Source: Bacillota bacterium
GTDB taxonomy: Bacteria; Bacillota; Negativicutes; Sporomusales; CTSoil-080
DNA: 64,000 nucleotides
Direction of reading: 5' to 3'
Assembly: GCA_017889625.1 (NCBI GenBank)
Contig: JAGGAD010000002.1
Span: 119,940 to 183,939 of the forward strand
In this document: piece after piece, positions 1,677 to 49,316 of the stretch
Numbering within the stretch: the stretch's first letter is position 1
Layout: every line of letters starts with the position of its first letter
Notes under the pieces: model-generated
Told to the model about the DNA's origin: nothing
Seen by the model: the letters and a program-made list of their open reading frames with translations, nothing else
The model's database searches: none
Position numbers and translations under genes: made by a program

Positions 1677-2492
1677 ATGAACTTGATTTATCGTGGCAAG
1701 AAAATGATTTATTTATTATTGGTTTGTGGTTTTTGGGGAATTGGCGCTGGCACTAACACGGTGGCTTTGGCCGCTGATACAGGGACTGTAAGCAATGCAG
1801 AGGAAAGCCATGTCATTCTTTATCCTGCCGGTTATGTCACTAATAATGAGGGGGCTTCTTCATATAGCGGAATTGGCAATGTCGACAAATCGCCGTACTA
1901 TTGTTCTCAGGATTATTATAATTTAAAGTCAAGTGGTACATTAACGATTTTGTCCAACTATAAGACTTATCAACAAACTACCGAGATAACTTGTGGTCCG
2001 GCGGCGGCGTTAACGGTGTTGAACCATTATGGTAATACTAGCTGGGATGAACTGAAAATCGCTAAAATAATGGGGACGAAACCAGGAACAGGTACCGATA
2101 CTAAAGGGATGGTAAAGTTTTTTAAGATGATTGGCTGGGAGGTTAATTCCAGCTTAACCGCGGCAAATAAAAATGGCGCTTCGTTTGCAACTGAGCAAGA
2201 TTTTAAAAGTTTTGTAATAGCAAATTTGAAAAATAATACTCCGATAATAGTTGAAAATATTGATTGGGGTGGGCACTGGCGAGTTATTATTGGCTATGAT
2301 ACGATGGGAACAGATACAATCGCGGATGATGTTCTGATTATGGCAGATTCGTATGATACAGGAGATCATTATCAGGATGGTTATATTGTAAATCCGGTAG
2401 AAAAATTCTATTATATGTGGTTTGATGCGCATATGCTTCCGCTGGGTCAGCAGCAACAGCAGTGGATTGTAGCTAAACCGCCGTTGTCGTAA
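1677..2492 (+). CDS. Secreted papain-like cysteine peptidase, C39-like/BtrH-like domain
   Basis: The RBS AGGAGGA precedes the ATG. There is an N-terminal signal peptide (LLLVCGFWGIGAGTNTVALA), and the catalytic-Cys context EITCGPAAALTVLNHYG is typical of the C39-like fold. Confidence 0.65.
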   Translation: MNLIYRGKKMIYLLLVCGFWGIGAGTNTVALAADTGTVSNAEESHVILYPAGYVTNNEGASSYSGIGNVDKSPYYCSQDYYNLKSSGTLTILSNYKTYQQTTEITCGPAAALTVLNHYGNTSWDELKIAKIMGTKPGTGTDTKGMVKFFKMIGWEVNSSLTAANKNGASFATEQDFKSFVIANLKNNTPIIVENIDWGGHWRVIIGYDTMGTDTIADDVLIMADSYDTGDHYQDGYIVNPVEKFYYMWFDAHMLPLGQQQQQWIVAKPPLS

Positions 2493-2527
2493 AATGCAAT
2501 AACAATATTGTTACTTATATGTTAAAT

Positions 2528-2580
2528 GCCGTAAAAATAAATGCTCCAGCCAATCGTGGCTGGAGCATTTATTTTTACGG
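2528..2580. terminator. Bidirectional intrinsic terminator
   Basis: Perfect long inverted repeat ccgtaaaaataaatgctccagcc / ggctggagcatttatttttacgg with A/T runs on both sides. Confidence 0.8.
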
Positions 2581-2610
2581 CGAATTAGTATTTGCTGGTT
2601 TTAACAAAGA

Positions 2611-2747
2611 ACATAAACTAATATAAACTAACATAAACAAATTAAAATGCTTATTCATATTGATTTTTATTTGAAAATATAGTAAATTATATACTGTAAA
2701 TGGAAAATATATAAACTAAAGGAAACAATGTTAAACTAAGGAAAACG
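2611..2747 (+). repeat. Phased direct repeats of (A/T)TAAAC(T/A)AA upstream of the import operon
   Basis: Three tandem 10-mers (acataaacta atataaacta acataaacaa) lie at 2611-2640. Two 17-mers, ataaactaaaggaaaca (2711-2727) and ttaaactaaggaaaacg (2731-2747), are spaced 20 nt apart. Confidence 0.6.
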
Positions 2748-2762
2748 TTGTGATGGCTGTAA

Positions 2763-2801
2763 CCTAATTGATGCAAATTACATCGATTAGGATTTTTTTT
2801 T
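2763..2801 (+). promoter_or_regulatory. Terminator-like hairpin plus a 9-T run abutting the RBS of the first operon gene (candidate attenuator)
   Basis: cctaattgatg (2763-2773) pairs with catcgattagg (2781-2791), giving 11 bp with one G-U. The T run at 2793-2801 is followed by GGAGGGG at 2802-2808 and the ATG at 2812. Confidence 0.5.
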
Positions 2802-2811
2802 GGAGGGGAAG

Positions 2812-3921
2812 ATGAATAAGACAAGAGTATTGGTATTTGTGGTTGTTAGTATTTTGCTAATTTTCTTAAGCGGATGTGGAGACAAGACGGCGAGTATCAG
2901 CAATACCAGTCAGGAAGCGGCTGGTAGTCGGGTTATAACCGATATGGCGGGACGTACAGTATTATTGCCGCAGCAGCTTAAAAAAGTTTATCCGGTCAGC
3001 CCGGTGGAAGCCATTATGCTGTATACCATTGATCCTGAACTGCTGGCTGGATGGAGCTACCATATGGCTTCGGATGAAGTACGGTTTATTTTGCCTAAAT
3101 ACCGGGATTTGCCAGTGGTTAGCTGGATTGACCGGGGTTCTACCGGTAATATAGAGGAAATCATCAAGACTAAACCTGATGCAATTTTGTTGATGACGGA
3201 TATAACGGAAGTGAATAAAAAATTTGCGGATGATATGGAACAACTGACCCAAATACCGGTAATAATGTTGGACAAGGATTTACCAAAAATGGAGCAAGCG
3301 TTTTTGGTTGCCGGTAAGGCATTGGATCGTGAAGCCCAAACGGCTGAACTGGCTCAATATTGCCGAGAAACTTTTGCGATGGTGCAAGCGAAAAAACCGT
3401 TGGTAGCGGAACGTAAGCCGATAGGGGTTTATTATGCCGAGGGACGTGGTGGGCTGGAAACTGAACCGCGTGGTTCCTGGCATGCCGAGATTATCGAATT
3501 TGTCGGCGGGGTTAATGTTGCCGATTCTGATTTGCCAGCTAGCGGAAAAATTGGTCGCAGTCCGGTGTCATTGGAACAGGTAATGAACTGGAATCCGGAA
3601 GTTGTTTTGATTGGGTATTTCCGTGATGGCGAATCGAGCAGCTTTCCGCAGATCATAAGTAACCAGGAATGGCGGGATATTCGGGCCGTTCGCGACCGGC
3701 GGGTATATGAAATTCCGACAGCACCGTTTAATTGGTTTGATCGTCCGCCAGCGGTCAACCGGCTTATCGGAATAAGATGGGTAGCTAATGTATTATATCC
3801 GGATATCTATCCGTTTGATTTTCGTGCGGAAGTAAAACGGTTTTATTCGCTTTTTTATCACTACCAATTGTCGGACCAGGAAGTAGACCAGTTGGCAAAT
3901 CGAGCCAGTGTGAACCAATAA
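2812..3921 (+). CDS. ABC transporter periplasmic substrate-binding lipoprotein, Fe-siderophore/heme/cobalamin (FecB/BtuF-like) family
   Basis: There is a lipobox (LIFLSGCG), and the length and sequence are typical of Peripla_BP_2 proteins. The true start is the ATG at 2812, after GGAGGGG; the ORF-track start at 2800 contains the RBS. Confidence 0.8.
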   Translation: MNKTRVLVFVVVSILLIFLSGCGDKTASISNTSQEAAGSRVITDMAGRTVLLPQQLKKVYPVSPVEAIMLYTIDPELLAGWSYHMASDEVRFILPKYRDLPVVSWIDRGSTGNIEEIIKTKPDAILLMTDITEVNKKFADDMEQLTQIPVIMLDKDLPKMEQAFLVAGKALDREAQTAELAQYCRETFAMVQAKKPLVAERKPIGVYYAEGRGGLETEPRGSWHAEIIEFVGGVNVADSDLPASGKIGRSPVSLEQVMNWNPEVVLIGYFRDGESSSFPQIISNQEWRDIRAVRDRRVYEIPTAPFNWFDRPPAVNRLIGIRWVANVLYPDIYPFDFRAEVKRFYSLFYHYQLSDQEVDQLANRASVNQ

Positions 3922-3949
3922 TTTTAATATAGATGAAAGAAGGGATAGC

Positions 3950-4957
3950 ATGAAATGCAATTATTGTGAATGGCGCTGTGAATTGGAAAACGGTAAATAT
4001 GGGGTGTGCCGCATGTACTATGAAGCTGACGGGGCAATACAAGAACGTTTTCCGAATAAATGGTGCACATACTCAATCATGCGGATCGAATCAGTGCCGT
4101 TTTATCATGCTTATCCTGGCAGCCGGAGCATGGCGATTGGTACGGCTGGCTGTAATATGGAATGCCGTTATTGCGTCAATTCCTTTATTGCCAGGGAAGA
4201 TCCGGCTAAAGTGCAAGAAAAAATGTTCGAATTTGCCCCGGAGGAACTGGTAAAAATGGCGGTTAAACGAGGCTGTCATAATATTGTGTTCAATGTAAAT
4301 GAACCAGCGGTATCGTTGCCGTCGCTATTGGAGGTTTCACGGGTAGCAAAACGGGCCGGGTTGCCGATGGGATGTCTTACTAATGCTTATACCACTGAGT
4401 ATGGAACAGAATTGCTAGCGAAAATTTTTTCCTTTGTCAATATCAGTCTTAAGGGGCTGTCATCGGAGTTTTGTCGAGAATATTTGGGGGTAACTGAGAG
4501 TAGACCGATTTTACAGAATATCGAACAATTAGCTAAAAGTGTGCACGTTGAAATAACGACTCCTGTTATCCAAGGGGGCAATGATGGGGAAATTGATGAA
4601 ATGGCTAAGTTTTTGGCGGGAGTTGATAAGAATATTCCCTGGCATGTGTTTCGGCTATTGCCGGAATATAAAATGAAGGAAGTGGAGTACCCAAACATTG
4701 AGCATATTAATGCGTCTTTAGATGAAAGCCGCCGGTTATTGCCGTATGTTTACTTTCATAATTTTGTTGGCTCGGATTGGGTTAATACTAGCTGCCCGAA
4801 GTGCGGGGCAATTGTTATTAAACGATTTAGTCTGGGGTGCGGTGGTGACAAGTTAGAAAGTTATAACTGCCAGGGCAATGCCTGCCCGGACTGTGGCTAT
4901 ATTATCCATATTCATGGCAAACGAATGGCGTGGAATTCGAAGGAGGGAGCAGTATGA
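3950..4957 (+). CDS. Radical SAM enzyme, PflA/AmmeMemoRadiSam-like, with a C-terminal Cys-rich ribbon
   Basis: The CX3CX2C motif CNMECRYC lies at nt 4151-4174. The N-terminal CNYCEWRCELENGKYGVCRMY motif is typical of COG1180-type activases. The C-terminus carries CPKCG...CQGNACPDCG. Confidence 0.8.
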   Translation: MKCNYCEWRCELENGKYGVCRMYYEADGAIQERFPNKWCTYSIMRIESVPFYHAYPGSRSMAIGTAGCNMECRYCVNSFIAREDPAKVQEKMFEFAPEELVKMAVKRGCHNIVFNVNEPAVSLPSLLEVSRVAKRAGLPMGCLTNAYTTEYGTELLAKIFSFVNISLKGLSSEFCREYLGVTESRPILQNIEQLAKSVHVEITTPVIQGGNDGEIDEMAKFLAGVDKNIPWHVFRLLPEYKMKEVEYPNIEHINASLDESRRLLPYVYFHNFVGSDWVNTSCPKCGAIVIKRFSLGCGGDKLESYNCQGNACPDCGYIIHIHGKRMAWNSKEGAV

Positions 4958-6075
4958 GTATAGCAATCATTGATGCAAGAGAATGGCAAAATATTTTTGA
5001 TCTTCGGACCGGGGGCAAGCGAACGGATAATTTGCCGAACATCCAGATGGTAAAGTCAGTACTTGAGAAACATCCCTATCCCGGTGATCTTGATCCGAGG
5101 GGGAATAAATGGGTAACGGATACTGCTTTGGATTTAGTTAACCGGTATGAGCCCAATCTTGTATTTTTGACCTATGCTCAGCAATACTACCGATTTCGGT
5201 TTGAATGTCCGGATGAAGCCGTGCGGCAAGCGTTAATTGACGAAGTATTTGCCGAGGTGGAACGGTTCAGTAAAGAATCGGGGTTTGTGCCGGTAGTTGT
5301 TGGAACCGGTGACTTAGTGGAAGTAAAAGAGTATATTGATTTAAGTAATTTGGAGGGGATAGGGATAACCAGTCATTGGTTAACCAGATATGCTGGACTA
5401 TATGATGTAAGTCCAGCTGATTGGCGATTTTTAGAGAGTCATGCCGGGATTGAAAAGGTAGTAAGCAAAAAAAATTTCATAGAGTTATTTAGCGGTGAAC
5501 CGGTTGTCGCTGACCAACTGCCGGACTATCTCGCGATAGCCCATGAAGAGTATTGTTTCCGGTCGACGCTGCTTCGGCAGCCGCTTATGATGTCGGCAAA
5601 TAATTACTCTATTCCGATAGCTGGGCCGATCAATGGCGTAAAGTCAATTGTGGACATCAGCGGTCGAGTTGATGAGATACTGCGGGATAAAAAAGTTGCC
5701 ATGATTTTTGTCGAAGGAGTTGGCTTGCGGGACTTTCGCCTGCCGTACGCTGTTTGCTCAAATGGGAAGGGATGGTATGCCTATGAGAATGGCGAGACTC
5801 AGTATTTGACAATAAGCACCGGTAGACATCAGGTATTTGCTTATCCGCCAGGAAATCGCTCGTTAAGTGAGTATGATGAAAATAAAGAATATCCTTTCTC
5901 GGGCTACTTTACGGCTATTCCCAGCGGGACAATTGGCGAAAGGTTTGGTGGCAAAAGTGTTGCGGTGGGAAACCGGAGTATGTTTATGCATACCGTTACC
6001 GGAACAGATATTGCGATTGAGTGTTTTGCCAGGAACTTGTCTAATCAAGGGTGCTTAGGCGTAATTCATCGCTAA
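4954..6075 (+). CDS. Conserved-looking hypothetical protein (373 aa), no motif recognised
   Basis: The ATG at 4954 follows GGAGGGAG and overlaps the upstream stop by 4 nt (ATGA), consistent with translational coupling. It has no TM segment or signal peptide. Confidence 0.6.
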   Translation: MSIAIIDAREWQNIFDLRTGGKRTDNLPNIQMVKSVLEKHPYPGDLDPRGNKWVTDTALDLVNRYEPNLVFLTYAQQYYRFRFECPDEAVRQALIDEVFAEVERFSKESGFVPVVVGTGDLVEVKEYIDLSNLEGIGITSHWLTRYAGLYDVSPADWRFLESHAGIEKVVSKKNFIELFSGEPVVADQLPDYLAIAHEEYCFRSTLLRQPLMMSANNYSIPIAGPINGVKSIVDISGRVDEILRDKKVAMIFVEGVGLRDFRLPYAVCSNGKGWYAYENGETQYLTISTGRHQVFAYPPGNRSLSEYDENKEYPFSGYFTAIPSGTIGERFGGKSVAVGNRSMFMHTVTGTDIAIECFARNLSNQGCLGVIHR

Positions 6076-6106
6076 AATAAATAGAAGGATATTGGAGGTT
6101 GAAAAA

Positions 6107-6706
6107 ATGGGGATTGAACAACAGCCGGATTGGCAGAAAGTTGTAGAATTTCATGGACATGTTTGTCCAGGTCTGGCAATTGGCTATCGTTTGGCTAAGG
6201 CCGCCTTGATGGCGCTAGGGTATGAAAATCCGGAAGATGGTGATTTGGTGACAATCGCGGAAAGCGACCGATGTACGATTGATCCATTCCAAATTGTTCT
6301 CGGCTGTACGATGGGTAAGGGAAAGTTGCATATGAATGTTACTGGCAAACAAGCGTTTACGGTAGGCTGCCGCAAGAAAGGTCTCGCGGTACGGGTGGTG
6401 CAATTGCCTCACGAATATTCTGCCGAAAGCGATGCTTTAACTAAGAAAGTCATGAGCGGTAAGGCATCGGATGTTGAGTACCGGATGTTCAAAAAAGAAC
6501 GGGAGAACCGGATCCAGGAAATTCTGACGATGCCGGATGCAGCTTTGCTAAAAGTAGAAACGGTAGCAAGTGTTTTACCTGAAAAAGAAACCATTTATAA
6601 CTCGCCCTGTTGTGCGTATTGCGGCGAACAAGTGATGGAACCATGGACGCGATTGCGTGATGGTAAAATTTCTTGTATTCAATGCGCAGTGACTGCTAAT
6701 AGGTAA
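6107..6706 (+). CDS. FmdE-domain protein with a C-terminal zinc-ribbon
   Basis: FHGHVCPGLAIGYR is the FmdE/FwdE family signature. The C-terminal CCAYCGEQV...ISCIQC forms a Cys4 ribbon. GGAGG precedes the ATG at 6107. Confidence 0.8.
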   Translation: MGIEQQPDWQKVVEFHGHVCPGLAIGYRLAKAALMALGYENPEDGDLVTIAESDRCTIDPFQIVLGCTMGKGKLHMNVTGKQAFTVGCRKKGLAVRVVQLPHEYSAESDALTKKVMSGKASDVEYRMFKKERENRIQEILTMPDAALLKVETVASVLPEKETIYNSPCCAYCGEQVMEPWTRLRDGKISCIQCAVTANR

Positions 6707-6717
6707 TGGAGGAAACT

Positions 6718-7704
6718 ATGAATCATTTTCTACATCCATTGTATTTACCACTTGCTGATGATCCAACACCATTATCAGCCTTATCGATGAATCGTATGTT
6801 GCATGAGAGTATTAGCCAGGCCCTGAAATTTGGCATTTTTGAACAATTAAAAACTGCCCGATCATATGCTGAAGTGGCTGAGTTGCTGAAATTTGATCCC
6901 CAGGTAACATATTATCTTTTGAAGGCACTGGTTGAATTGGGGTGTCTTGCGGAAGAGGATGGGCGCTTTTTTGATACACCGATGGCTGAGGCTTATTTAA
7001 CGAAAGATAGCTGTTTGTATTTGGGACATGAATTTACTGCTTTAGCGGGAGACTTGTTTGGCGGATTACTGGCCAAGCGCCTGAAAGGGAAAAATGGTGA
7101 CAAGCCACCAGAGCCGGAGTGGAGCCAAGAACGCCTACGCCAGCTGGGGGTGCTTGGACTGATGGGATCGATTCAGAGTGTGGTGGAGGCCTGTTCATTA
7201 GACAATGCACGGACGTTCTTGGATTTAGGCGGCGGGCATGGCTATTACAGTATTGCTTTGGTGCAAAAATATCCTGAACTAAAAGCTACGGTATTTGACC
7301 TGCCGCATATTGTGGAGTTGGCCCGAGCGTTTGCTAAACAATCTGAAGTAGAAGGTCAGGTTGGGTTTATTGGCGGCAATTTCATGACCGATGAGATTGG
7401 CCAGGGGTATGATGCGGTGTTGTGCGCCAATATCTTGCACAGCAGCAAGCGGGATATTGTTTTAAATAAGGTTTATACCGCATTGAATTCTGATGGCAAA
7501 ATTATTGTTAAAACCCGTGTTGCCGATGCCCCGAACAATCTGGAAAATGCGTTTAATAATCTGTTCTGGCAAGTGCGTGGGGGAAAAGAACTGTTTACTA
7601 CTAAGCAATGGCGGGGATTTTTAGCGGAGCATGGCTTCCGTGGGGCGAAGGTGTTTAATATATTCGGTACTTTTGCAACAATTATTGCGCGTAAAGAGGG
7701 GTAA
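6718..7704 (+). CDS. Class I SAM-dependent O-methyltransferase (Methyltransf_2-like, with an N-terminal dimerisation/wHTH domain)
   Basis: The SAM motif LDLGGGHGYYS is followed by an acidic FDLP motif, and the architecture is like COMT/CrtF-type OMTs. The start could be 6706 or 6718; GGAGG at 6708-6712 favours 6718. Confidence 0.75.
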   Translation: MNHFLHPLYLPLADDPTPLSALSMNRMLHESISQALKFGIFEQLKTARSYAEVAELLKFDPQVTYYLLKALVELGCLAEEDGRFFDTPMAEAYLTKDSCLYLGHEFTALAGDLFGGLLAKRLKGKNGDKPPEPEWSQERLRQLGVLGLMGSIQSVVEACSLDNARTFLDLGGGHGYYSIALVQKYPELKATVFDLPHIVELARAFAKQSEVEGQVGFIGGNFMTDEIGQGYDAVLCANILHSSKRDIVLNKVYTALNSDGKIIVKTRVADAPNNLENAFNNLFWQVRGGKELFTTKQWRGFLAEHGFRGAKVFNIFGTFATIIARKEG

Positions 7705-7745
7705 AGATAGCTAACTGATTGCTGCAACGTTCGGAGGTAATACAT

Positions 7746-8759
7746 ATGAAAAATAGACGGACTTCGCTAAAAGTACTAGCTTTGTTGGCAGTGCTGGTAG
7801 TAGCGTTTTTTGGATCGTTTTTAATTGGCCGCTATCCGGTTTCGCCGGATGTGGTTGTGACTATTCTAGTATCGAAAGTAATTTCTTTGCCGCAAATTTG
7901 GACAGACACTATGGAAACGGTGGTCATGAAAATCCGGTTGCCAAGGATTGCGGCGGCCTTATTGGTTGGAGGGGCATTATCTGTTTCTGGAGCGGCCTAC
8001 CAGAATTTATTCCGTAATCCCTTAGTATCGCCGTCGATCTTGGGGGCATCCTGGGGAGCGGGCTTTGGAGCAGTACTAGGGATGATTCTGCACCTTTCAT
8101 GGATATGGGTCGAAGCTTCGGCTTTTATCTTCGCTTTGGTGGCTGTAATCTGTGCTATTTTAATTAGTTCCTATTTTGGCAAAAGCTCTATACTGTCCTT
8201 AGTGCTTGCTGGGATTGTTGTTTCGGCATTTTTCCAGGCGTTGGTTTCGGTGTTGAAATATTTGGCTGATCCAATGAACACGCTGCCGGAAATCAGTTTT
8301 TGGCTGATGGGTGGTCTGTCCAAGGTCACTGAACGGGATGTAGTCTGGTCACTGGTGCCGATAATTATTTCCCTGGTGGTGTTGTACTCGATGCGTTGGC
8401 AAATAAATGTTCTTAGTATCGGTGAAGAAGAAGCGCACACCTTGGGGGTCAATGTTAAGCGAACTAGGTTGGCGGTTTTGGCTTGTGCGACCTTGTTGGC
8501 GGCGGCGGCCACCAGTATTGGCGGTATTATCCAGTGGGTGGGGTTACTCATCCCTCATATGGCGAGGATGCTGTTTGGTGCTAATTTTGTTACGGTACTT
8601 TCGGCATCACTGCTGTTAGGGGGAACATTTATGGTGCTTATGGATAATTTAAGCCGGAGCGTTGCTTCTTTGGAAATACAAGTCGGTATTCTTACCTCAC
8701 TTATTGGGGCACCGGTTTTTGTTTTTCTTTTAGCGCGGGCCAAAAAAGGCTGGGTATAG
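7746..8759 (+). CDS. FecCD-family ABC permease (Fe-siderophore/heme/B12 type)
   Basis: The protein is polytopic, with RLPRIAAALLVGGALSVSGAAYQNLFRNPLVSP typical of FecCD/BtuC. GGAGG precedes the ATG at 7746. Confidence 0.85.
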   Translation: MKNRRTSLKVLALLAVLVVAFFGSFLIGRYPVSPDVVVTILVSKVISLPQIWTDTMETVVMKIRLPRIAAALLVGGALSVSGAAYQNLFRNPLVSPSILGASWGAGFGAVLGMILHLSWIWVEASAFIFALVAVICAILISSYFGKSSILSLVLAGIVVSAFFQALVSVLKYLADPMNTLPEISFWLMGGLSKVTERDVVWSLVPIIISLVVLYSMRWQINVLSIGEEEAHTLGVNVKRTRLAVLACATLLAAAATSIGGIIQWVGLLIPHMARMLFGANFVTVLSASLLLGGTFMVLMDNLSRSVASLEIQVGILTSLIGAPVFVFLLARAKKGWV

Positions 8760-8815
8760 TCAGGTGGTTAGCGGCGAATGATGCTTTGCAGTAACTTTTG
8801 GAGGAGATGGCGGGA

Positions 8816-9412
8816 ATGTACGAGACCGTAATCAAGGGTGGTATTGTGCTTGGCGTAATCCTGGTTTGCTCATTAATCGCGATGACGATTGTCATCCAGC
8901 GGTGGTGGTTTTATCGCTCGGTCGAGCGTGAAGATGCTGATTACACGCCGAAACTAAAAAAAGCCATTGATGGTGAAACATCAAGTATTGTTGCTGATGG
9001 AAACAGTACGTTAGCCAGGTTGTGGTCGGCGATGTATGAATTGCGCCGGGGAACGGCAGCGGAACAGGAGGCTGCCGGTGAACTTGTTTTAGAAAGTGAG
9101 AGTTTACGGTTGGATAAATATCTTTATATTTTGGCGACAATTGCGACAATTGCTCCGCTATTGGGATTGTTGGGCACCGTGTTTGGTATGATTAAGACTT
9201 TTCACGCTGCGGCACTCAGTGGAGCCGGTAATCCGCAAATGTTAGCTGAGGGGATTTCTGAAGCGTTATATAATACGGCGGCGGGACTATTGGTTACAAT
9301 CTTTTGTATTGTCTGCCATAATCATTATCGCAATTGGGCTGAGCGGCGAGTACGAGTTCTGGAAAACCGGGCTAAACAATTTGCTGCGATCTTAGCTGGA
9401 GGAGGTAGGTGA
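8816..9412 (+). CDS. exbB: MotA/TolQ/ExbB proton-channel protein
   Basis: The motif LATIATIAPLLGLLGTVFGMI...GISEALYNTAAGL is typical of ExbB/TolQ, and the gene sits beside exbD and tonB. Confidence 0.85.
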   Translation: MYETVIKGGIVLGVILVCSLIAMTIVIQRWWFYRSVEREDADYTPKLKKAIDGETSSIVADGNSTLARLWSAMYELRRGTAAEQEAAGELVLESESLRLDKYLYILATIATIAPLLGLLGTVFGMIKTFHAAALSGAGNPQMLAEGISEALYNTAAGLLVTIFCIVCHNHYRNWAERRVRVLENRAKQFAAILAGGGR

Positions 9413-9816
9413 GGGGGCGTAGATCGTCTGGCCGGGCTATCGGTGTGCATGTGGATATGACGCCGATGGTTGATGTCATGATGCTGTTGGTAATTTTCTT
9501 TATGATGACTACCGCCTTTGTTAGTATTTATCCTGGCTTTGAGATAAATTTGCCGCAGGCTTCGGTTGAACGGCAGGATAAAACAACGGTAGAAGTTTTG
9601 ATTGCTAAAGATGGGCGAGTTGCGGTGGATGGCAAGCTTGTCGGAAAGGGGGAAATGAAGGCCGCGCTAAGTTCGGAAGGAAGGTTGGCGAACAGTGTTT
9701 CTATCCGGGCCGATAAAGAAGCCAGCCATGGAATGGTCGTAGCAGTTATGGATGAAATTCATAAAGCCGGAGTGACTAAGATGGCTATAGCCGTTGAGGA
9801 AAAGGGGCGGCAATAA
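9409..9816 (+). CDS. exbD: ExbD/TolR biopolymer transport protein
   Basis: The DMTPMVDVMMLLVIFFM helix is followed by a periplasmic domain. The GTG start overlaps the exbB stop (GTGA). Confidence 0.85.
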   Translation: MRGRRSSGRAIGVHVDMTPMVDVMMLLVIFFMMTTAFVSIYPGFEINLPQASVERQDKTTVEVLIAKDGRVAVDGKLVGKGEMKAALSSEGRLANSVSIRADKEASHGMVVAVMDEIHKAGVTKMAIAVEEKGRQ

Positions 9817-9817
9817 T

Positions 9818-10537
9818 ATGCGAGTAAGCACATGGTGGGGTGCGTTTGTCCTGGCTGCGACTCTGCATGCGACAGGTTTAGTCCTGGCCGGACATAGTAT
9901 ATTGGTCCCGGATGAATCAATAGTTGAGAATGTAAGTAATCAAACGATTGAGATCGAACTTGAGCAACCAGAACTGCTTGAATCAGAAGCGCTTATAGCT
10001 GCCCAGGATAGCTCGCCGGCGTTTAGCGCCAGTCCGTTGCCACAGGCAAAGGTAAGCCCGTGGCGTGATGAAACTAAACCGGCTGCTGCTGTAGCCGCGG
10101 TGGTTGTTGCATCTCCGGCAATAAGCGCAGCCGATGACGGCGATGATAATCAAATTGCGGTATCACTTGCTGGGGCTAATGGCACCGGTCAGTCTGGATC
10201 AGGTGGCGGTTCATCCGGCAATGCCCGTGGCGGAGGTGGCGGATATTCAGATAGTGATGGCGGGGTTACTAGTTTGCCGCAGGCGATATCTACGCCATCG
10301 CCTGAATTTCCGGCCGAAGCAAGATTAAATAGATGGCAGGGTACGGTGGCGGTAAAGGTTCTGGTTACGCCTTCAGGCGAAGTGGAAGAGGTTAGGCTTG
10401 CCAAAAGTTCAGGGTATGATGTCCTGGACCGTGCAACTATAAACAAAGCCTATCAATGGCAATTTACCCCGGCATACCGTAATGGACAGCCTGTAGCTCG
10501 TTGGATCATAAGGAGTATAGTTTTTAAGTTGAAATGA
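9818..10537 (+). CDS. tonB: TonB energy transducer
   Basis: It has an N-terminal anchor, a Pro/Ala/Gly-rich spacer and a TonB_C domain (EFPAEARLNRWQGTVAVKVLV...GQPV). The ATG lies 1 nt after the exbD stop. Confidence 0.85.
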   Translation: MRVSTWWGAFVLAATLHATGLVLAGHSILVPDESIVENVSNQTIEIELEQPELLESEALIAAQDSSPAFSASPLPQAKVSPWRDETKPAAAVAAVVVASPAISAADDGDDNQIAVSLAGANGTGQSGSGGGSSGNARGGGGGYSDSDGGVTSLPQAISTPSPEFPAEARLNRWQGTVAVKVLVTPSGEVEEVRLAKSSGYDVLDRATINKAYQWQFTPAYRNGQPVARWIIRSIVFKLK

Positions 10538-10609
10538 TAAGTAACCTCTTAATAATAGGCGTGGTTTTCTAATAAGCACATATGGTGGTTAGGGGGCGGC
10601 GAAAACACA

Positions 10610-11392
10610 GTGCTAACGATAGAAAATATCAGCTTTGGTTATGCGGTGGCTGATGATTTACTTAGCGACATCTCATTTACTGTGGACAAGGGGGATGTTG
10701 TCTGTCTCCTCGGCCCTAACGGTGCCGGGAAAACAAGTTTATTAAGATGTATGCTGGGGATCTCTAAAGTCAGATCAGGCATGATTAAGGTTCAAGGCCG
10801 CTCGATTAAGGAGATATCAGCCAAAGAAATGGCTCGGGCAATGGCGTATGTCCCACAGGCGACGGCAACGGTGTTTCCGCATAGTGTCATGGATATGGTG
10901 GTTATGGGCCGTACACCGCATATTGGGATTATGGCAGCCCCTTCGGAGCAAGATTTGGCTATTGCCGCCGAAGCCCTGGTGGAACTGGGCATACCTCATT
11001 TGGCGGACTCTTTGTTTAGTCAAATTAGTGGGGGGGAACGTCAGCTAACGTTAATAGCTCGGGCCTTGGTGCAACAGGCGGACTTGCTGATTATGGATGA
11101 GCCAACCGCAAGCCTGGATTATGGTAATCAGGTACGTATTTTAAAGGTTATTGATCGGCTTGCCAGCCAAGGCTATTCAATCATTATGACCTCGCACTTT
11201 CCCAATCATGCCTTTTTACTATGTAATAAAGTCTTGATCATGAAAAATGGTAAAATCACTGCTGTTGGCCGTCCTGAGGATGTGGTTACTGACGAGCGGC
11301 TGAGCGACCTCTATGCTACGACAGTCAAAGTAGTGGAAATTGACGCTGGTGATTCGAAGCTTATGAAGATTTGTGTGCCACTGATGGCGTAA
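10610..11392 (+). CDS. ABC transporter ATP-binding protein (FecE/FepC/BtuD-like)
   Basis: Walker A (GPNGAGKTS), the signature motif (SGGERQ) and Walker B (LLIMDEPT) are all present. Confidence 0.9.
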   Translation: MLTIENISFGYAVADDLLSDISFTVDKGDVVCLLGPNGAGKTSLLRCMLGISKVRSGMIKVQGRSIKEISAKEMARAMAYVPQATATVFPHSVMDMVVMGRTPHIGIMAAPSEQDLAIAAEALVELGIPHLADSLFSQISGGERQLTLIARALVQQADLLIMDEPTASLDYGNQVRILKVIDRLASQGYSIIMTSHFPNHAFLLCNKVLIMKNGKITAVGRPEDVVTDERLSDLYATTVKVVEIDAGDSKLMKICVPLMA

Positions 11393-11441
11393 GGCCGGGC
11401 GAAGCCCGGAAAAAATATTAATATTGTCATGGAGGGATAAC

Positions 11442-13445
11442 ATGCGTAAAAAAATCATTGCTAATTTGGCGCTAGTCAATTGCGTATTGCTAATGTTGCC
11501 GAGTTTAGTTGGAGCTCAGCAAAGCGAGGCTGAGGATTCAGAAACGGTTAATTTGGGAGAAGCGGTTGTCAGCGCCGTCCCGTTGGAAAAATACCTAGTT
11601 ACTACCAGTGTTATTACAGATAAGGACATTGCCGCTAAGGGCGCGCGTAATTTGGCGGAAGCTTTGGCGGATGTTCCGGGGTTGAACTTGCACCAAGGGA
11701 AAAAGGGGAATGTCGCGGTGGATATTCGCGGTGTTACCAGTACAGATGTCAAAATATATGTTGATGGAGTATTAGTAAATCCGCTAGCTAAGATGACTAG
11801 TTCATCGGCTGTTGATGCATCGATTATTCCAGTAGATAATATTGCTAAGATCGAGGTAATCAAAGGCCCGGCACCGGTTATTTACGGGACTGATGCTAAA
11901 GGCGGAGTAATATTAATTACCACGAAGAATGGCAGCGATTATCAAGGCGGCAATGTTTCACTGGCAGCCGGGACGTGGGGTTCATTAAACGGTGCGGTCT
12001 CTTATGGCGGCGGCGATAAAAAGTTTAACTACTTTTTTGATGTCGGCTCTGAACGCACTGACGGCTATCGGAGCGTTCACCGGGATACAAAAAATGTTAA
12101 TACTAAACTGAACTGGACTTTTGACAATGACGCTGTCCTTACCTTTACGGGGGGCTATTCGACCACTGATAAAGACTGCCAGAATGCAATTGATCCGGTC
12201 ACTGGCAAGGTTGTTACTTCCACAACCGGGTTTTGGCCGGGGTTAAATAATTGGCAGTATCGAGATTGGGAAAGAAGTAATTTATCGTTGGATTATACTA
12301 AAAAAGTCAACAGCAAGCTGGATTATGATGTTAAAGTATATCGGTTTACGGAGAACAACGGGTTGTGGGCGAACGGGACAGAATATACCAGTGCGACTTT
12401 AGCTTCTAAATACGGATATAGTACTACACGGTGGAATGCCAGCTATTGGGATAGTACGCTTACCGGCGTTGAACTATCAGCTAATTGGAAACTAAATGAT
12501 CGCCATTTGCTAACTTTTGGAACCCTTTATAATGATATTGACTGGAAAAAATCAGATTCGGATGACGATTATAACCCTGACGATTATTATTGGCTGGATT
12601 ATAAAAACAAACGGTATGGATATTATTTGCAAGATACCATTCAAGCTAATGAACGGACAACCTTTATTTTAGGCGTGCGGCATGATAAAAATGAAGTAAT
12701 TAATACTGATAATACAACTACAAAAGATTCGGCGACCAATCCGACGGTAAATGTGCTTTACCAGCTTGATGCTAAAAACACTTTGCGGACGGCTTATGGC
12801 CAGACCTATAGCTTTCCGAGTGCTGAAGCATTGTATACTACTACCTATGGCAATCCAGACTTAAAACCGGAAAAATCTAAGAACTATGAAATAGGCTGGA
12901 AACACGAATTTAATGATACCTTAACCGGCGACTTTGCAATCTTCAAGAATGATATTGTTGATAAAATTGATCGGCTTAAAAAATATTACTATAACTTAGA
13001 CTGGGCCAAGATCAAAGGTATAGAACTTGAATTTGATAAACAGTTTTCTACTAATGTAAAAGGCTATGTTAACTATACATACCTGGATACTGCCAGCGCC
13101 GATTATAGTGGCACGGTGACCACCCTTACATACACACCGCGGAACCATGTTAATTACGGCCTTAGTTACCAGGCAAGTAAAGGGTATAATTTTGACCTTA
13201 CCGGTCACTGGGTTGGTCGCCGGTATACCGGTGACAGCACTGGCTCTGATACGCGCTCGACAAGCGTGGTGTATTCTAAATTGCCCAGTTATAATCTGAT
13301 CGACTTAAAAATAAGCCGTCAGGTTAGCGAAAAACAGGATTGGTATATTACAGTATATAATATTTTCAATAAACATTATGAAGAAGAACTGTTCTATCCC
13401 GATCCTGGCATCTGGATGATGATTGGTACTAACTACAAAATTTAA
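11442..13445 (+). CDS. TonB-dependent outer-membrane receptor
   Basis: It has a signal peptide, a TonB-box-like ETVNLGEAVVSA, plug motifs (IEVIKGPAPVIYGTDAKGGVILITTK) and a long beta-barrel region. GGAGGG precedes the ATG at 11442. Confidence 0.9.
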   Translation: MRKKIIANLALVNCVLLMLPSLVGAQQSEAEDSETVNLGEAVVSAVPLEKYLVTTSVITDKDIAAKGARNLAEALADVPGLNLHQGKKGNVAVDIRGVTSTDVKIYVDGVLVNPLAKMTSSSAVDASIIPVDNIAKIEVIKGPAPVIYGTDAKGGVILITTKNGSDYQGGNVSLAAGTWGSLNGAVSYGGGDKKFNYFFDVGSERTDGYRSVHRDTKNVNTKLNWTFDNDAVLTFTGGYSTTDKDCQNAIDPVTGKVVTSTTGFWPGLNNWQYRDWERSNLSLDYTKKVNSKLDYDVKVYRFTENNGLWANGTEYTSATLASKYGYSTTRWNASYWDSTLTGVELSANWKLNDRHLLTFGTLYNDIDWKKSDSDDDYNPDDYYWLDYKNKRYGYYLQDTIQANERTTFILGVRHDKNEVINTDNTTTKDSATNPTVNVLYQLDAKNTLRTAYGQTYSFPSAEALYTTTYGNPDLKPEKSKNYEIGWKHEFNDTLTGDFAIFKNDIVDKIDRLKKYYYNLDWAKIKGIELEFDKQFSTNVKGYVNYTYLDTASADYSGTVTTLTYTPRNHVNYGLSYQASKGYNFDLTGHWVGRRYTGDSTGSDTRSTSVVYSKLPSYNLIDLKISRQVSEKQDWYITVYNIFNKHYEEELFYPDPGIWMMIGTNYKI

Positions 13446-13475: not shown

Positions 13476-13535
13476 AAAAGCGACCAATCCCGGTTGAGGC
13501 CTCGTGACTTCAAAGCGGGATTGGTCGCTTTTGGT
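13476..13535 (+). terminator. Intrinsic terminator of the import operon
   Basis: A 17-bp stem, aaaagcgaccaatcccg / cgggattggtcgctttt, is followed by a T-rich tail. Confidence 0.75.
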
Positions 13536-13630: not shown

Positions 13631-14890
13631 ATGTTAATTAAAAAAAAGGTACTGAACAATTTATTTGTGTTTATTTTAATTGTCGGAGTTTTAACCGTTT
13701 CCTTAGCAACAATTGCCTCGACGATGCCAGTAGCGGCCAAGGATGTACCAAGCCATATTATATTAACCTGGACGGGCGATGCCCGGACCACTCAAACCAT
13801 TACTTGGCAGACCGATGCTAATACTCAGGATGGTCAAGTGCAATATTGGGAGGTAAGACCTGGTCATTTGGGCGAGCAAATAAATTTAGCGGCACAAGTG
13901 AAAACGGTTGTCAGTAATAAGGGAGAGTTCAATGTTCATACCGCTACGATTACCGGACTTAAGCCAGGTACCAGATATGCTTATCGGATAGGTATTCCTG
14001 GTACCTGGAGTCAACAGGCGCATTTTGCGACTGCTCCGGTGACCGGAGGGGAGTTTAAATTCTTGGTGTTTGGTGATTCTCAAAGTATAAACTATGATAC
14101 GTGGCGCACGACTTTACATAACGCGTATCAGGCAAACCTGGACACTGCGTTTTTTATAAATATGGGTGACTTGATTGATATGGGACAGGACTATAGTCAG
14201 TGGGATGCCTGGTTTAATGCAACTCAGGGCGTGTTGGAGAATATCCCTTGTATGCCAGTTGTTGGCAATCATGAAACTTATGCCCCAGAGAGACGGCTTG
14301 CTATGCCGACGTTGTTTACCGATCAGTTCAAATTGCCGATGAATGGGCCTGAGGGACTTAAAGGGCAGGTATATTCGTTTAATTATGCTGATGTGCATTT
14401 CGTCATGCTGGATACCCAAATTGACGAAGAAGGACGCTTTGTACCGGATATGCTGGAAAAACAAAAACACTGGTTGGAAGAAGATTTGGCAACTGCCGGG
14501 GAAAAGTGGAAGCTGGTCTTTGTCCACAAGGCTCCATATAACAATAAACCCAATGGCAACCCGACAATTCGGACGGGGTTTGCCCCCATTATTGAAAAAT
14601 ATCATGCCGATCTTGTTTTTACTGCCCATGACCATGTATATGCGCATACTTATCCAATGTATAATGGGATGGCAGTCGAAAATCCAACAAAGGGCACTAT
14701 CTATGTAGCAACGGGACGGAGTGGCAGTAAAACCTATTCAACCTCAATAGCGAAAGAATGGGACGATTTTTTTTACAATCCCCTAGATGAACCGAATTAT
14801 CTTACAGTGGAAGTAAATGATAATATATTAACAGTTACGGCCTATCGACAGAACGGTGGATTAATTGATAAATGGAGCATTGTTAAGTAA
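13631..14890 (+). CDS. Secreted metallophosphoesterase, purple-acid-phosphatase-like
   Basis: It has a signal/anchor helix, a PAP N-terminal beta domain (TWQTDANT...YAYRIG) and calcineurin-like motifs (GDSQ, GDLIDMG, GNHE, HKAPY, HDH). GGGAGGG precedes the ATG at 13631. Confidence 0.8.
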   Translation: MLIKKKVLNNLFVFILIVGVLTVSLATIASTMPVAAKDVPSHIILTWTGDARTTQTITWQTDANTQDGQVQYWEVRPGHLGEQINLAAQVKTVVSNKGEFNVHTATITGLKPGTRYAYRIGIPGTWSQQAHFATAPVTGGEFKFLVFGDSQSINYDTWRTTLHNAYQANLDTAFFINMGDLIDMGQDYSQWDAWFNATQGVLENIPCMPVVGNHETYAPERRLAMPTLFTDQFKLPMNGPEGLKGQVYSFNYADVHFVMLDTQIDEEGRFVPDMLEKQKHWLEEDLATAGEKWKLVFVHKAPYNNKPNGNPTIRTGFAPIIEKYHADLVFTAHDHVYAHTYPMYNGMAVENPTKGTIYVATGRSGSKTYSTSIAKEWDDFFYNPLDEPNYLTVEVNDNILTVTAYRQNGGLIDKWSIVK

Positions 14891-15520: not shown

Positions 15521-15835
15521 ATGAACTACATTGATGCTTTGAAAGCTCTAGCCGATTACAACCGATTAGCGATTATGTGTTATCTTCGAAATGGCACTAA
15601 GTGTGTTTGTGAAATTGAACAAATCTTAGCAATATCCCAGTCAGCCACCTCCAAGCACCTGAACAAATTAAGAATGGCAGGCCTTATCGAGGCAGAAAAA
15701 AAAGCGCAGTGGGTACACTATAGTATTTCTAACAAAGCTTATGCTGAATATCCATTTTTAGAAATAATTCTTTCTGAGGCAAGTACTCAGTATGTATTTG
15801 ATACTAGCAAAGTAAAAAAATATAGTGATTGTTAA
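15521..15835 (+). CDS. arsR: ArsR/SmtB-family metalloregulator
   Basis: It has a wHTH with a CVCE metal-binding motif (GTKCVCEIEQIL) and is the first gene of the ars operon. Confidence 0.85.
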   Translation: MNYIDALKALADYNRLAIMCYLRNGTKCVCEIEQILAISQSATSKHLNKLRMAGLIEAEKKAQWVHYSISNKAYAEYPFLEIILSEASTQYVFDTSKVKKYSDC

Positions 15836-15854
15836 TACGGTGGGAGTAGATATA

Positions 15855-16253
15855 GTGAAACGAGTAGCGTTTGTTTGTGTCCATAATTCATGCCGATCTC
15901 AGATGGCCGAGGCGTTTGGTAAAGTTTTTGGCCTTGAAGTATTTGAATGTTTTTCGGCGGGAACAGAAAAACGGGATCAAATCAATCAAGATGCAGTGCG
16001 AATTATGAAGGAAATTGGTATCGATATGGAGCTTAACCAGAAACCTAAGCTGCTCCAGGATATACCTCACGCTGATATTGTGGTAACAATGGGCTGTAAT
16101 GTGAACTGTCCCGTTATTTCTTGTAATTATCGTGAGGATTGGGGGCTAGATGATCCAACGGGAAAAACTGATGAAGATTTCAGGATTGCACGCAATATGA
16201 TAAAAGTCAAAGTGGAAGATCTTGGACAACGGATAAAATCCAGTTCAATCTAG
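15855..16253 (+). CDS. arsC: Arsenate reductase, LMW-PTP (thioredoxin-coupled) type
   Basis: The P-loop CX5R is present (VCVHNSCRSQMAE). GTG at 15855 follows GGTGGGAG. Confidence 0.85.
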   Translation: MKRVAFVCVHNSCRSQMAEAFGKVFGLEVFECFSAGTEKRDQINQDAVRIMKEIGIDMELNQKPKLLQDIPHADIVVTMGCNVNCPVISCNYREDWGLDDPTGKTDEDFRIARNMIKVKVEDLGQRIKSSSI

Positions 16254-49004: not shown

Positions 49005-49316
49005 ACAAATAATATGAAAAAGACGATGAACGGAAGAGTAATTATCAATTGTGATATTTTACAGCGAGCTGGAATTGGTGTGAGCCAGTAATATCGATAG
49101 TAATGAAAATCATCCGTGAGTTGCGCACTGAAGTTTAGTAAGCTGCGCCGGCCCTCTGAGGAGGAACCGCTGTCCGTTATTGCAGCGAGGTATCGAAGGC
49201 ATATGATTACTTTCTGTACCTATGAGCGGCTATGGGCAACCATAGCAATTTGGGTGGTAGCACGGACTAACCTCCGTCCCTTACGATTTGCGTAAGGGAC
49301 GGAGGTTTATTTTTTT
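49005..49316 (+). promoter_or_regulatory. T-box riboswitch leader upstream of ilvB
   Basis: Stem I carries AGAGTA and a distal GCGAGCTGGAATTGGTGTGAGCCAG. The T-box AATTTGGGTGGTAGCACGG lies at 49247-49265. The terminator is aacctccgtcccttacg / cgtaagggacggaggtt plus a T run (49269-49316). Confidence 0.8.

Follow-up and report, generated by a model that had tools for sequence, protein, structure and literature searches.

Eleven co-directional genes combine a complete TonB-dependent import chain with four enzyme genes in a 64,000-nucleotide stretch of a Bacillota genome (GTDB lineage Negativicutes; Sporomusales; CTSoil-080; assembly GCA_017889625.1, contig JAGGAD010000002.1, positions 119,940 to 183,939, forward strand), referred to here as the window. 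The enzyme genes are located between the genes encoding the binding protein and the permease, which raises the question of what is imported and what the embedded enzymes do with it. The original prediction, made from the sequence alone, proposed that a tetrapyrrole or metallophore is modified or demetallated anaerobically after its uptake. The eleven genes represent one operon for TonB-energised uptake, and its host was read as an anaerobic diderm, Sporomusa-like Negativicute. Two of the enzymes, a radical S-adenosylmethionine (SAM) enzyme (rSAM) and a 373-aa protein of an uncharacterised family (UNK), are encoded as a pair that recurs next to importers in distant phyla. Based on these comparisons, it appears rather probable that the operon serves the supply of molybdenum or tungsten (Mo/W).

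The rSAM-UNK pair and its attachment to importers

The neighbourhood of the pair was analyzed in 85 related loci, comprising 80 fetched genomic loci and five from exact look-ups. They originate from Sporomusa (among them S. ovata DSM 2662, L006, and S. acidovorans, L012), other Negativicutes, Desulfovibrio/Solidesulfovibrio, Syntrophorhabdus, Smithella, Syntrophus, Geobacter/Pelobacter, Acidobacteriota (Holophaga) and Spirochaetota; no archaea were found among the 80 fetched loci. Neighbouring genes were scored by phmmer and unbiased all-against-all clustering, and features were counted within 10 kb in the 51 well-flanked loci, which possess at least 7 kb on both sides. The rSAM gene lies immediately upstream of the UNK gene in 81 of the 85 loci (49 of the 51 well-flanked ones), usually with a 4-nt overlap. 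Furthermore, natural rSAM-UNK fusions of 668–734 aa were identified (P0128, P0131, P0141, P0176). With overlapping genes in the window and a single fused polypeptide elsewhere, both proteins are predicted to work as a unit. Between Negativicutes and Desulfobacterota, rSAM proteins are 59–62% and UNK proteins 47% identical, whereas the transport proteins share only 22–43% identity.

An importer permease of any type is encoded within 10 kb of the pair in 43 of the 51 loci (84%), representing at least five phyla. Three importer classes are found beside the pair, namely FecBCD-like systems with a TonB-dependent outer-membrane receptor (TBDR), energy-coupling factor (ECF)-type systems and true modABC transporters; FecCD-type permeases occur in 35, ECF-type permeases in eight and Mod-type systems (ModA or ModB present) in four of the well-flanked loci. 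A TBDR is encoded in 29 of them, and monoderm-type loci such as L028 lack it. Among the further companions, a methyltransferase of some family was counted in 36/51, an FmdE domain in 24/51 and DUF364 in 20/51 loci (30/85 of all). The family-2 O-methyltransferase of the window type is present in 3/51 loci (5/85 of all), being replaced by other methyltransferase families elsewhere. Since FmdE is found in approximately half of the loci and the family-2 O-methyltransferase in only five of 85, what is conserved as a unit is the pair, together with its attachment to an importer, and not the block of four enzymes. The original prediction that the enzymes are coupled to import accordingly holds for the pair; the four-gene block did not emerge as a conserved unit.

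The enzyme genes might also be passengers that are co-transcribed with the transporter without any functional link to it. The overlapping or nearly overlapping state of four of the ten gene junctions and a promoter-like site at 10529–10556 would suit this explanation. It is nevertheless highly improbable in view of the position of the enzyme genes between binding-protein and permease genes, the presence of importers beside the pair at the frequency and phylogenetic breadth given above, and the fusion of a paralogous rSAM to a binding-protein-like domain described below.

The rSAM protein contains the canonical CX3CX2C motif noted in the original prediction (CNMECRYC, residues 68–75, nt 4151–4174), matches PF04055 with 59.5 bits (cutoff 29.5) and carries additional cysteine pairs (CNYC, CPKC, CPDC) at both ends. 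Its homologues (n = 625) are invariant in length and 58–76% identical across phyla. The nearest NCBIfam model, TIGR04337 (AmmeMemoRadiSam), aligns over the full length and yields 142.6 bits, below its cutoff of 220. AMMECR1 and Memo were absent from the precomputed Pfam matches within 10 kb on each side on the window's contig and from the recurrent neighbour clusters of the related loci. An assignment as PflA-type activase fails as well (TIGR02493/TIGR02494, 45.9 bits vs 174 and 19.9 vs 232), and no glycyl-radical enzyme gene is located within 10 kb on each side. None of the 22 NCBIfam matches at E ≤ 0.01 is HemN/ChuW/HutW-like, and no SPASM family reaches its cutoff. The name given by the depositors, 'molybdenum cofactor biosynthesis protein', was discounted as an automatic MoaA-type label and is not used as evidence. 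In a 586-aa protein (L003, 10859–12619), an rSAM paralogue with 32% identity is joined to the C-lobe of a Peripla_BP_2-like domain, and this fusion hints that the rSAM family may handle what binding proteins bind. The same type of fusion was also observed in L058 and L078 (12328–14097).

For UNK, no sequence or profile match was found in Pfam, NCBIfam or the PDB. All 571 homologues at E ≤ 0.001 are named hypothetical, and searching the UNK profile exhaustively through 1.84 billion representative proteins returned 138 clusters at 50% identity, all of them belonging to UNK's own family. The protein is cytoplasmic, lacks a signal peptide, is approximately 50% identical across phyla and contains invariant His, Asp, Glu and Cys residues. 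An AlphaFold2 (AF2) model calculated from an 85-sequence alignment reached a predicted local distance difference test (pLDDT) score of 91.5 and a predicted template modelling (pTM) score of 0.92. Searching this high-confidence model against the PDB with Foldseek gave no match at E ≤ 0.001, the best being ENPP6 (E = 8e-3, template modelling (TM) score 0.29–0.34). A first, poorer model had matched phosphonoacetate hydrolase 1ei6 (E = 4e-5, TM 0.39). Because the better model weakened the match, the likeness to nucleotide pyrophosphatase/phosphodiesterase (NPP) and alkaline phosphatase is regarded as a remote resemblance only. UNK may thus have at most a remote NPP/alkaline-phosphatase-like core, and the model has no close structural relative in the PDB. 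Analogies of the pair with sulfatase and its anaerobic sulfatase-maturating enzyme (anSME), or with glycyl-radical enzymes and their activases, were rejected, since UNK contains neither the sulfatase (formylglycine) motif C/S-x-P/A-x-R nor the glycyl-radical motif RVxG[FWY]. Judged by its sequence, UNK represents a previously undescribed protein family.

The profile and fold searches recommended in the original prediction hence placed three of the four enzymes in families and left UNK, correctly described as lacking a recognisable motif, with weak NPP-like fold matches only. Likewise, its statement that the gene set matches no described pathway agrees with the literature searched; in a full-text search, no paper describing the rSAM-UNK pair was found either.

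The FmdE-domain protein exceeds the family cutoff clearly (PF02663, 125.5 bits vs 22.9), contains the HGHxCPG motif and ends in a Cys4 ribbon formed by the cysteine pairs CAYC...CIQC; its solved relatives are 2glz, 2gvi and 3d00. The methyltransferase belongs to O-methyltransferase family 2 (PF00891, 80.7 bits vs 22.3; dimerisation domain PF08100, 29.1 vs 25.6), and, of the solved structures, DsyB (65 bits) and the BchU/CrtF-related 1x19 come closest to it. Of the 85 loci, 15 encode a fusion of a TrmO-like SAM-binding domain with an FmdE domain (e.g., L005, 12877–13701). In Sporomusa-type operons, this fusion gene is placed between the permease and ExbB genes, where the window has no equivalent gene; the window's family-2 methyltransferase is instead encoded upstream of the permease.

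Transport proteins and the molybdenum/tungsten context

Domain calls based on Pfam and NCBIfam confirmed every such assignment of the original prediction, including the complete diderm import chain. The receptor exceeds the cutoffs for the Plug domain (PF07715, 87.8 bits) and the 22-strand barrel (PF00593, 152 bits), and together with ExbB, ExbD and TonB, which also score above cutoffs, it constitutes a TonB-dependent uptake system. Among solved structures, the permease is most similar to HI1471/MolB (2nq2_A, 221.7 bits), compared with 180 bits for FhuB, 155 for HmuU and 113 for BtuC, and the only match of the ATPase below 1e-40 is HI1470/MolC (2nq2_C, 155 bits); since structures are available for no more than about five type II importers, MolBC being closest does not mean that the proteins are orthologous. 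Among named solved proteins, HI_1472/MolA (3psa/3psh, E = 4e-15, 58.8 bits) is most similar to the binding protein, ranking third behind the unnamed binding proteins 4pag and 4ovk. No NCBIfam equivalog cutoff was reached by the TBDR or for any vitamin B12, haem or siderophore component. For the cobalamin equivalogs, values of 154 vs 600 and 128 vs 836 (BtuB), 222 vs 461 (BtuC) and 22.6 vs 234 bits (BtuF) were obtained.

These results bear on the cargo assumed in the original prediction, namely a haem, corrinoid or other metalloporphyrinoid that is modified or demetallated anaerobically. A TBDR combined with a type II ATP-binding cassette (ABC) importer is the classical haem/B12 route. Moreover, the nearest sub-threshold NCBIfam models of the importer are the corrinoid BtuC and BtuD, and the methyltransferase is nearest to the tetrapyrrole C-20 methylase BchU. 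TP_methylase-domain genes occur in six loci and ECF-type importers and CobW in some, and Aklujkar et al. speculated on novel porphyrins beside such receptors of Pelobacter (PMC3543383). Every BchU, BtuC and BtuD score is, however, far below its cutoff (BchU, TIGR02716: 61 bits vs 276), the rSAM is not of the HemN/ChuW type, the TP_methylase domains are joined to a molybdopterin-binding domain, and the pair also occurs in modABC operons. B12 transporters of the taxa in question are normally under riboswitch control, and Rfam scans of the window and 43 related loci, including that of S. ovata, revealed no cobalamin riboswitch (RF00174). A tetrapyrrole cargo is therefore distinctly unlikely. Little support was obtained for any of the cargoes originally considered (tetrapyrrole, corrinoid or Fe-siderophore); molybdenum cofactor (Moco) riboswitches, Mo-related neighbours and similarity to MolBC were found instead. 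A demetallation or modification of an imported metal species is possible, for Mo/W and not for a porphyrin.

Within the same 43 loci and the window, six Moco riboswitches (RF01055) were detected in four loci, and two of them directly head rSAM-UNK operons. In L078 (Syntrophales), the riboswitch (1893–2016) is followed by co-directional genes for the receptor (2078–4240), the ABC ATPase, the FecCD permease, two periplasmic binding proteins, rSAM (8994–10004), UNK (10001–11140), a Metallophos protein whose gene overlaps that of UNK by 4 nt, and the rSAM-binding-domain fusion. In L083, a Geobacter metagenome-assembled genome (MAG), the riboswitch (4841–4959) precedes a di-TOBE mop gene, modA, modB, a TOBE-bearing modC, rSAM and UNK. 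Moco riboswitches also flank the operon in L014 and L015, the closest relatives carrying the O-methyltransferase; they were rejected as regulators of the operon, since they point away from it or control an adjacent gene for a 538-aa protein. This protein has no Pfam match and is preceded by the riboswitch in L015 (1065–3272, +) and L014 (17244–19455, −). Its sequence is 83% identical in these two Selenomonadales MAGs, and its gene adjoins the operon on opposite sides; neither in the window nor in the other loci does a homologue occur. In L078, a second Moco riboswitch followed by an NAD-type aldehyde dehydrogenase gene (68–1892, +) was observed directly ahead of the riboswitch-controlled receptor operon; this enzyme would suit the role of a cofactor-independent replacement for a tungsten aldehyde oxidoreductase.

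Furthermore, genes related to Mo/W recur in the neighbourhood of the pair. MoeA is encoded in seven loci, often in two copies. True ModA is found among the neighbours (TIGR01256, 226 bits vs cutoff 62.5), and ModB recurs likewise. In L041 and L050, a regulator composed of a helix-turn-helix (HTH) domain and a binding-protein-like PF12727 domain is transcribed divergently from the operon. The PF12727 domain also occurs fused to MoeA, as indicated by an NCBIfam match, and on this basis we take these regulators to be presumably TunR-like, TunR being a family of regulators that respond to tungstate. At least one gene for MoeA, ModA, ModB, a PF12727 regulator or a TP_methylase-molybdopterin fusion is present in 20 of 81 distinct loci (~25%); as a rough estimate, this would be expected for a few per cent of 20-kb segments taken at random from such genomes. 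A 583-aa fusion of TP_methylase-like and Oxidored_molyb domains was observed in L022 (13972–15723, −) and five other loci, often beside a gene of the amino-acid-permease family.

Published observations on the companion genes point in the same direction. FmdE was named after the molybdate-regulated fmd operon (PMC3087415), and DUF364 of M. maripaludis belongs to a modABC operon showing cofitness with nifH and lies beside fmdE (bioRxiv 10.1101/2024.03.05.583561; PMC10390477; PMC2954201). The closest published remark on the system comes from a genome paper, in which molybdopterin-binding proteins, tetrapyrrole methylases and Moco riboswitches are noted in the vicinity of Pelobacter receptors (PMC3543383).

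Also considered was an importer for chelates of a different scarce metal (Ni, Co, Zn or Fe), where the rSAM pair would break the chelator to free the metal and the Mo/W genes would reflect a mere co-location of trace-metal genes. CobW-family GTPase genes in five loci and ECF modules with CbiO/CbiQ-like components in approximately ten would agree with it, as would the resemblance of the binding protein to the Ni-binding CeuE (4ino/4inp, 37 bits) and to iron-chelate binders, and the genomic context of DUF364, which includes Fe and V transport (PMC2954201). In the scanned loci, however, neither a NiCo nor any other metal riboswitch was found besides the Moco riboswitches, two of which head operons, and the recurrent regulators and cofactor genes (MoeA, ModA, Mop, PF12727-type regulators) are specific for Mo/W. 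This explanation is considered unlikely.

A further explanation assumes that rSAM-UNK, the methyltransferase-fold protein and the DUF364 protein of the relatives build a secreted, SAM-derived metallophore that is retrieved by the receptor and the ABC importer after loading with Mo/W or another metal. Metallophore clusters often unite biosynthesis genes with TBDR and FecBCD-type uptake genes, SAM-derived azetidine and aminobutyrate units build nicotianamine-type chelators, and a TBDR is normally required for cargo exceeding free oxyanions in size. A DUF364 enzyme indeed cyclises an SAM derivative into methyl-azetidine carboxylate (PMC12930334), and the frequencies of DUF364 and methyltransferase-fold genes reported above (30/85 and 36/51 loci) would suit such a biosynthesis. 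It is less easily reconciled with the lack of a conserved exporter in the loci, the absence of DUF364 from the entire 64-kb window, the monoderm-type loci without a TBDR (L028), and the occurrence of the pair in plain mop-modABC operons that encode a free-molybdate binding protein and no receptor. The synthesis of a metallophore is hence rated as rather unlikely.

Several observations weigh against Mo/W as the cargo. The window itself contains neither a Moco riboswitch nor a recognisable Mo-responsive operator, and in its closest relatives the Moco riboswitches adjoin the operon and do not head it. Direct regulatory evidence for Mo/W originates from distant relatives (Syntrophales, Geobacter, Acidobacteriota) whose transport proteins are 21–43% identical, and approximately 75% of the loci contain no Mo/W gene within 10 kb. 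The binding protein resembles MolA only modestly (58.8 bits), and the nearest NCBIfam models of permease and ATPase, albeit far sub-threshold, are haloarchaeal corrinoid BtuC and BtuD. The CobW and CbiO/CbiQ-like ECF genes would suit Ni, Co or Zn equally. Moreover, to our knowledge no known biochemistry requires an rSAM enzyme or a methyltransferase for the use of molybdate or tungstate, and the proposed step would be without precedent. Because the regulatory evidence comes from distant relatives, the connection of the window to Mo/W depends on three elements, namely the conserved core pair, the presence of FmdE and the resemblance to MolBC.

Taking these arguments together, we infer from sequence comparisons that the operon of the window would import a Mo/W species; the chemistry proposed in the following is of the same nature. 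That such a species is imported and subsequently processed in the cytoplasm by rSAM-UNK is given an even chance. The rSAM-UNK module would act in the cytoplasm on the Mo/W species delivered by the neighbouring importer and convert it to a form usable by the cofactor pathway (MoeA). An action of the pair in the cytoplasm, downstream of import, is proposed because the pair also follows plain modABC, an importer of the free oxyanion; an exotic chelate tied to a single transporter is considered an improbable substrate. The FmdE-domain Zn-ribbon protein is probably a metal or cofactor handler, and the SAM methyltransferase probably modifies a leaving group or carrier. The genes for Metallophos, MoeA and NTPase proteins often found nearby would agree with an action after uptake and before the assembly of the cofactor. 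Candidate chemistries are, in order of preference, (1) the stripping of sulfide or another ligand off Mo/W, (2) the salvage of pterin-cofactor fragments, and (3) the synthesis of a carrier or chelator.

More tentatively, and rather as a speculation, the pair together with FmdE, the methyltransferase and the Metallophos and DUF364 proteins of the relatives may form a new system that allows strict anaerobes to use Mo/W in forms other than oxyanions. Candidates are thiomolybdate or thiotungstate from sulfidic water, or the pterin cofactor or its fragments, salvaged via a Moco-riboswitch-controlled TonB-dependent route. By analogy, the latter would be the Mo/W counterpart of B12 salvage.

Mo/W is sequestered in sulfidic water as thio-anions or sulfide minerals. 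The pair is carried by acetogens, sulfate reducers, syntrophs, Geobacter relatives, Acidobacteriota and Spirochaetota, which all depend on W/Mo formate dehydrogenases and aldehyde oxidoreductases. M. maripaludis grows on tetrathiomolybdate and molybdenite, the uptake route being not known (PMC11484787). The rSAM-UNK pair represents a compact, conserved and testable candidate for the way in which anaerobes obtain Mo/W. The finding proposes a new job for a PflA-like rSAM and places the FmdE and DUF364 families, long without explanation, in a context; with a cargo other than Mo/W, too, a conserved rSAM step coupled to three importer classes would be new transport biology.

Anatomy of the operon and its surroundings

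The features of the operon are summarized in Table 1. Eleven open reading frames on the + strand span 2800–13445, with a leader hairpin ahead of them and a strong terminator behind, and independent gene calling on the source contig yielded the same eleven genes with the same starts. The eleven-gene import operon of the original prediction was thereby reproduced.

Table 1. Features of the import operon and its control regions in the window (positions are those of the window).
Feature	Position	Strand	Evidence
Three ATAAAC repeats, 10-bp spacing, directly upstream of the promoter	2608–2637	+	sequence reading
Likely promoter, TTGATT, 17 nt, TAAATT	2660–2688	+	positional alignment with relatives
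Structured 5' leader, hairpins 2725–2751 and 2763–2791 plus U-run ending at the ribosome-binding site	2716–2803	+	folding
Periplasmic binding protein, lipoprotein (Peripla_BP_2, cluster A, LSGC lipobox)	2812–3921	+	PF01497, 63.4 bits
rSAM, radical SAM enzyme, 335 aa, first half of the core pair	3950–4957	+	PF04055
UNK, 373 aa, second half of the core pair	4954–6075	+	uncharacterised family
FmdE-domain protein	6107–6706	+	PF02663, 125.5 bits
Family-2 SAM-dependent O-methyltransferase with dimerisation domain	6718–7704	+	PF00891, PF08100
Type II ABC importer permease, FecCD family	7746–8759	+	PF01032, 285 bits
ExbB/TolQ-type proton channel	8816–9412	+	PF01618, 94.5 bits
ExbD/TolR	9409–9816	+	PF02472, 99 bits
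TonB	9818–10537	+	PF03544, 81.4 bits
ABC importer ATPase	10610–11392	+	PF00005, 110 bits
TonB-dependent outer-membrane receptor (TBDR), signal peptide	11442–13445	+	Plug and beta-barrel domains
Intrinsic terminator, 2 x 17 bp stem within 13476–13532 plus UUUU	13476–13535	+	−36.8 kcal/mol, z = −5.5
Secreted purple-acid-phosphatase-like phosphoesterase	13631–14890	+	Pur_ac_phosph_N and Metallophos domains

The operon is compact, but truly tight or coupled junctions account for only four of ten. The rSAM and UNK genes share a 4-nt ATGA overlap (4954–4957), the stop codon TAA of the FmdE gene (6704–6706) is followed by GGAGG and the methyltransferase ATG at 6718, the ExbB and ExbD genes overlap by GTGA (9409–9412), and the ExbD stop ends at 9816 ahead of the TonB ATG at 9818. 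At the remaining junctions, gaps of 28–72 nt are present, each with a GGAGG-type ribosome-binding site. All four junctions listed in the original prediction are therefore correct, and its term 'translationally coupled unit' is overstated because just these four are tight. Within the operon, consensus promoter and terminator matches occur at chance level. A promoter-like site TTGAAA-16-AATAAT was observed at 10529–10556, at the 72-nt gap between the TonB and ATPase genes, and a small GC hairpin (CCGGGCGAAGCCCGG) without a U-run in the gap between the ATPase and receptor genes (11393–11441); both are possible candidate points of differential expression inside the operon.

Regarding the region upstream of the first gene, the promoter call was deduced from alignment with related Sporomusa-type loci, which carry TTGATT-17-TAATAT/TAATAG at the corresponding position; a consensus promoter scan chose an overlapping site at 2654–2683 instead. 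The ATAAAC repeats may represent a candidate regulator-binding site or UP-like element, and similar A/C-rich AAACA repeats are found at the same position in five related loci (L007, L008, L009, L010, L012). The leader folds with z = −3.1 (2700–2815), and its hairpin 2763–2791 with the U-run reaches −13.2 kcal/mol (z = −3.8); the two bounding hairpins of the original prediction, leader and terminator, are thus well supported. Comparison of the leader (2480–2830) with Rfam at permissive E-values returned terminator-like hairpin noise alone and no known riboswitch. Relatives retain a YTAA...TTAG hairpin ahead of the ribosome-binding site, with poor alignment and weak covariation support. A conserved leader RNA structure in the relatives was rejected, since the consensus energy is approximately 0, compensatory changes were seen at two pairs only and the alignment is too poor.

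The phosphoesterase gene located just past the terminator possesses its own promoter and is a conserved neighbour of the system. Its product is 53% identical to an in-operon counterpart in L014 (7705–8982), and an orthologue also lies inside the operon in L013. In many Desulfobacterota loci, shorter Metallophos genes are placed directly 3' of UNK and overlap its stop codon (e.g., L078, 11137–11904).

The G+C content of the operon amounts to 0.45–0.51 (3000–12000 of the window), compared with ~0.38–0.41 in the rest of the window. This difference and the rSAM identity of 60% across phyla suggest that the module may spread by horizontal transfer.

Further genes in the surroundings comprise an upstream response regulator, of which the receiver domain alone was matched (372–1142, −), and a Peptidase_C39-like protein (1677–2492, +). 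Downstream, an ArsR-type HTH_5 regulator and an arsenate reductase of the low-molecular-weight-phosphatase type are encoded (15521–16253, +), which are probably unrelated to the operon. Across the whole window, only a T-box leader (RF00230, 108 bits, 49017–49284, +) exceeded the gathering score of its Rfam family.

Comparison with known systems

Among characterised importers, MolBC-A of H. influenzae (HI1470/HI1471/HI1472) is a type II ABC importer of molybdate and tungstate (PMC4031551). The operon of the window shares with it the arrangement of cluster-A binding protein, FecCD permease and ATPase, and MolB and MolC are the best solved relatives of its permease and ATPase. Unlike MolBC-A, it additionally encodes a TBDR, ExbB/ExbD/TonB and four cytoplasmic enzymes; its binding protein is only modestly similar to MolA. 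The BtuB-BtuFCD and Fec/Fhu/Hmu systems likewise consist of a plug/barrel receptor, ExbBD-TonB, lipoprotein, FecCD permease and ATPase, but the operon described here lacks a cobalamin riboswitch and has enzyme genes embedded between those for binding protein and permease. A link to ModABC/Mop operons under Moco riboswitch control is given by L041 and L083, where rSAM-UNK closes a modABC operon, that of L083 following a Moco riboswitch and a Mop gene, whereas the window's operon contains neither ModABC-type genes nor a Moco riboswitch.

Regarding the enzymes, the AmmeMemoRadiSam and PflA families (TIGR04337, TIGR02494) are nearest to the window's rSAM and share its CX3CX2C motif; in contrast to them, it scores below the TIGR04337 cutoff of 220 and has no AMMECR1, Memo or glycyl-radical partner. 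The combination of anSME and sulfatase is comparable, as an analogy only, in that an rSAM gene is coupled to a protein with a remote NPP/alkaline-phosphatase-like core. It differs in that the window's rSAM lacks SPASM and UNK lacks C/S-x-P/A-x-R, with TM values of 0.29–0.39. ChuW/HutW and CbiZ are also cargo-processing enzymes encoded with uptake genes, but the window's rSAM is not HemN-like, no CbiZ is present, and no haem or B12 regulatory signal was found.

Overall, the transport chain is of a known kind, namely TonB-dependent uptake combined with a MolBC-like type II importer. No paper among those searched describes the embedded rSAM-UNK module, its occasional fusion into a single protein, its association with importers of three classes or its membership in Moco-riboswitch regulons.

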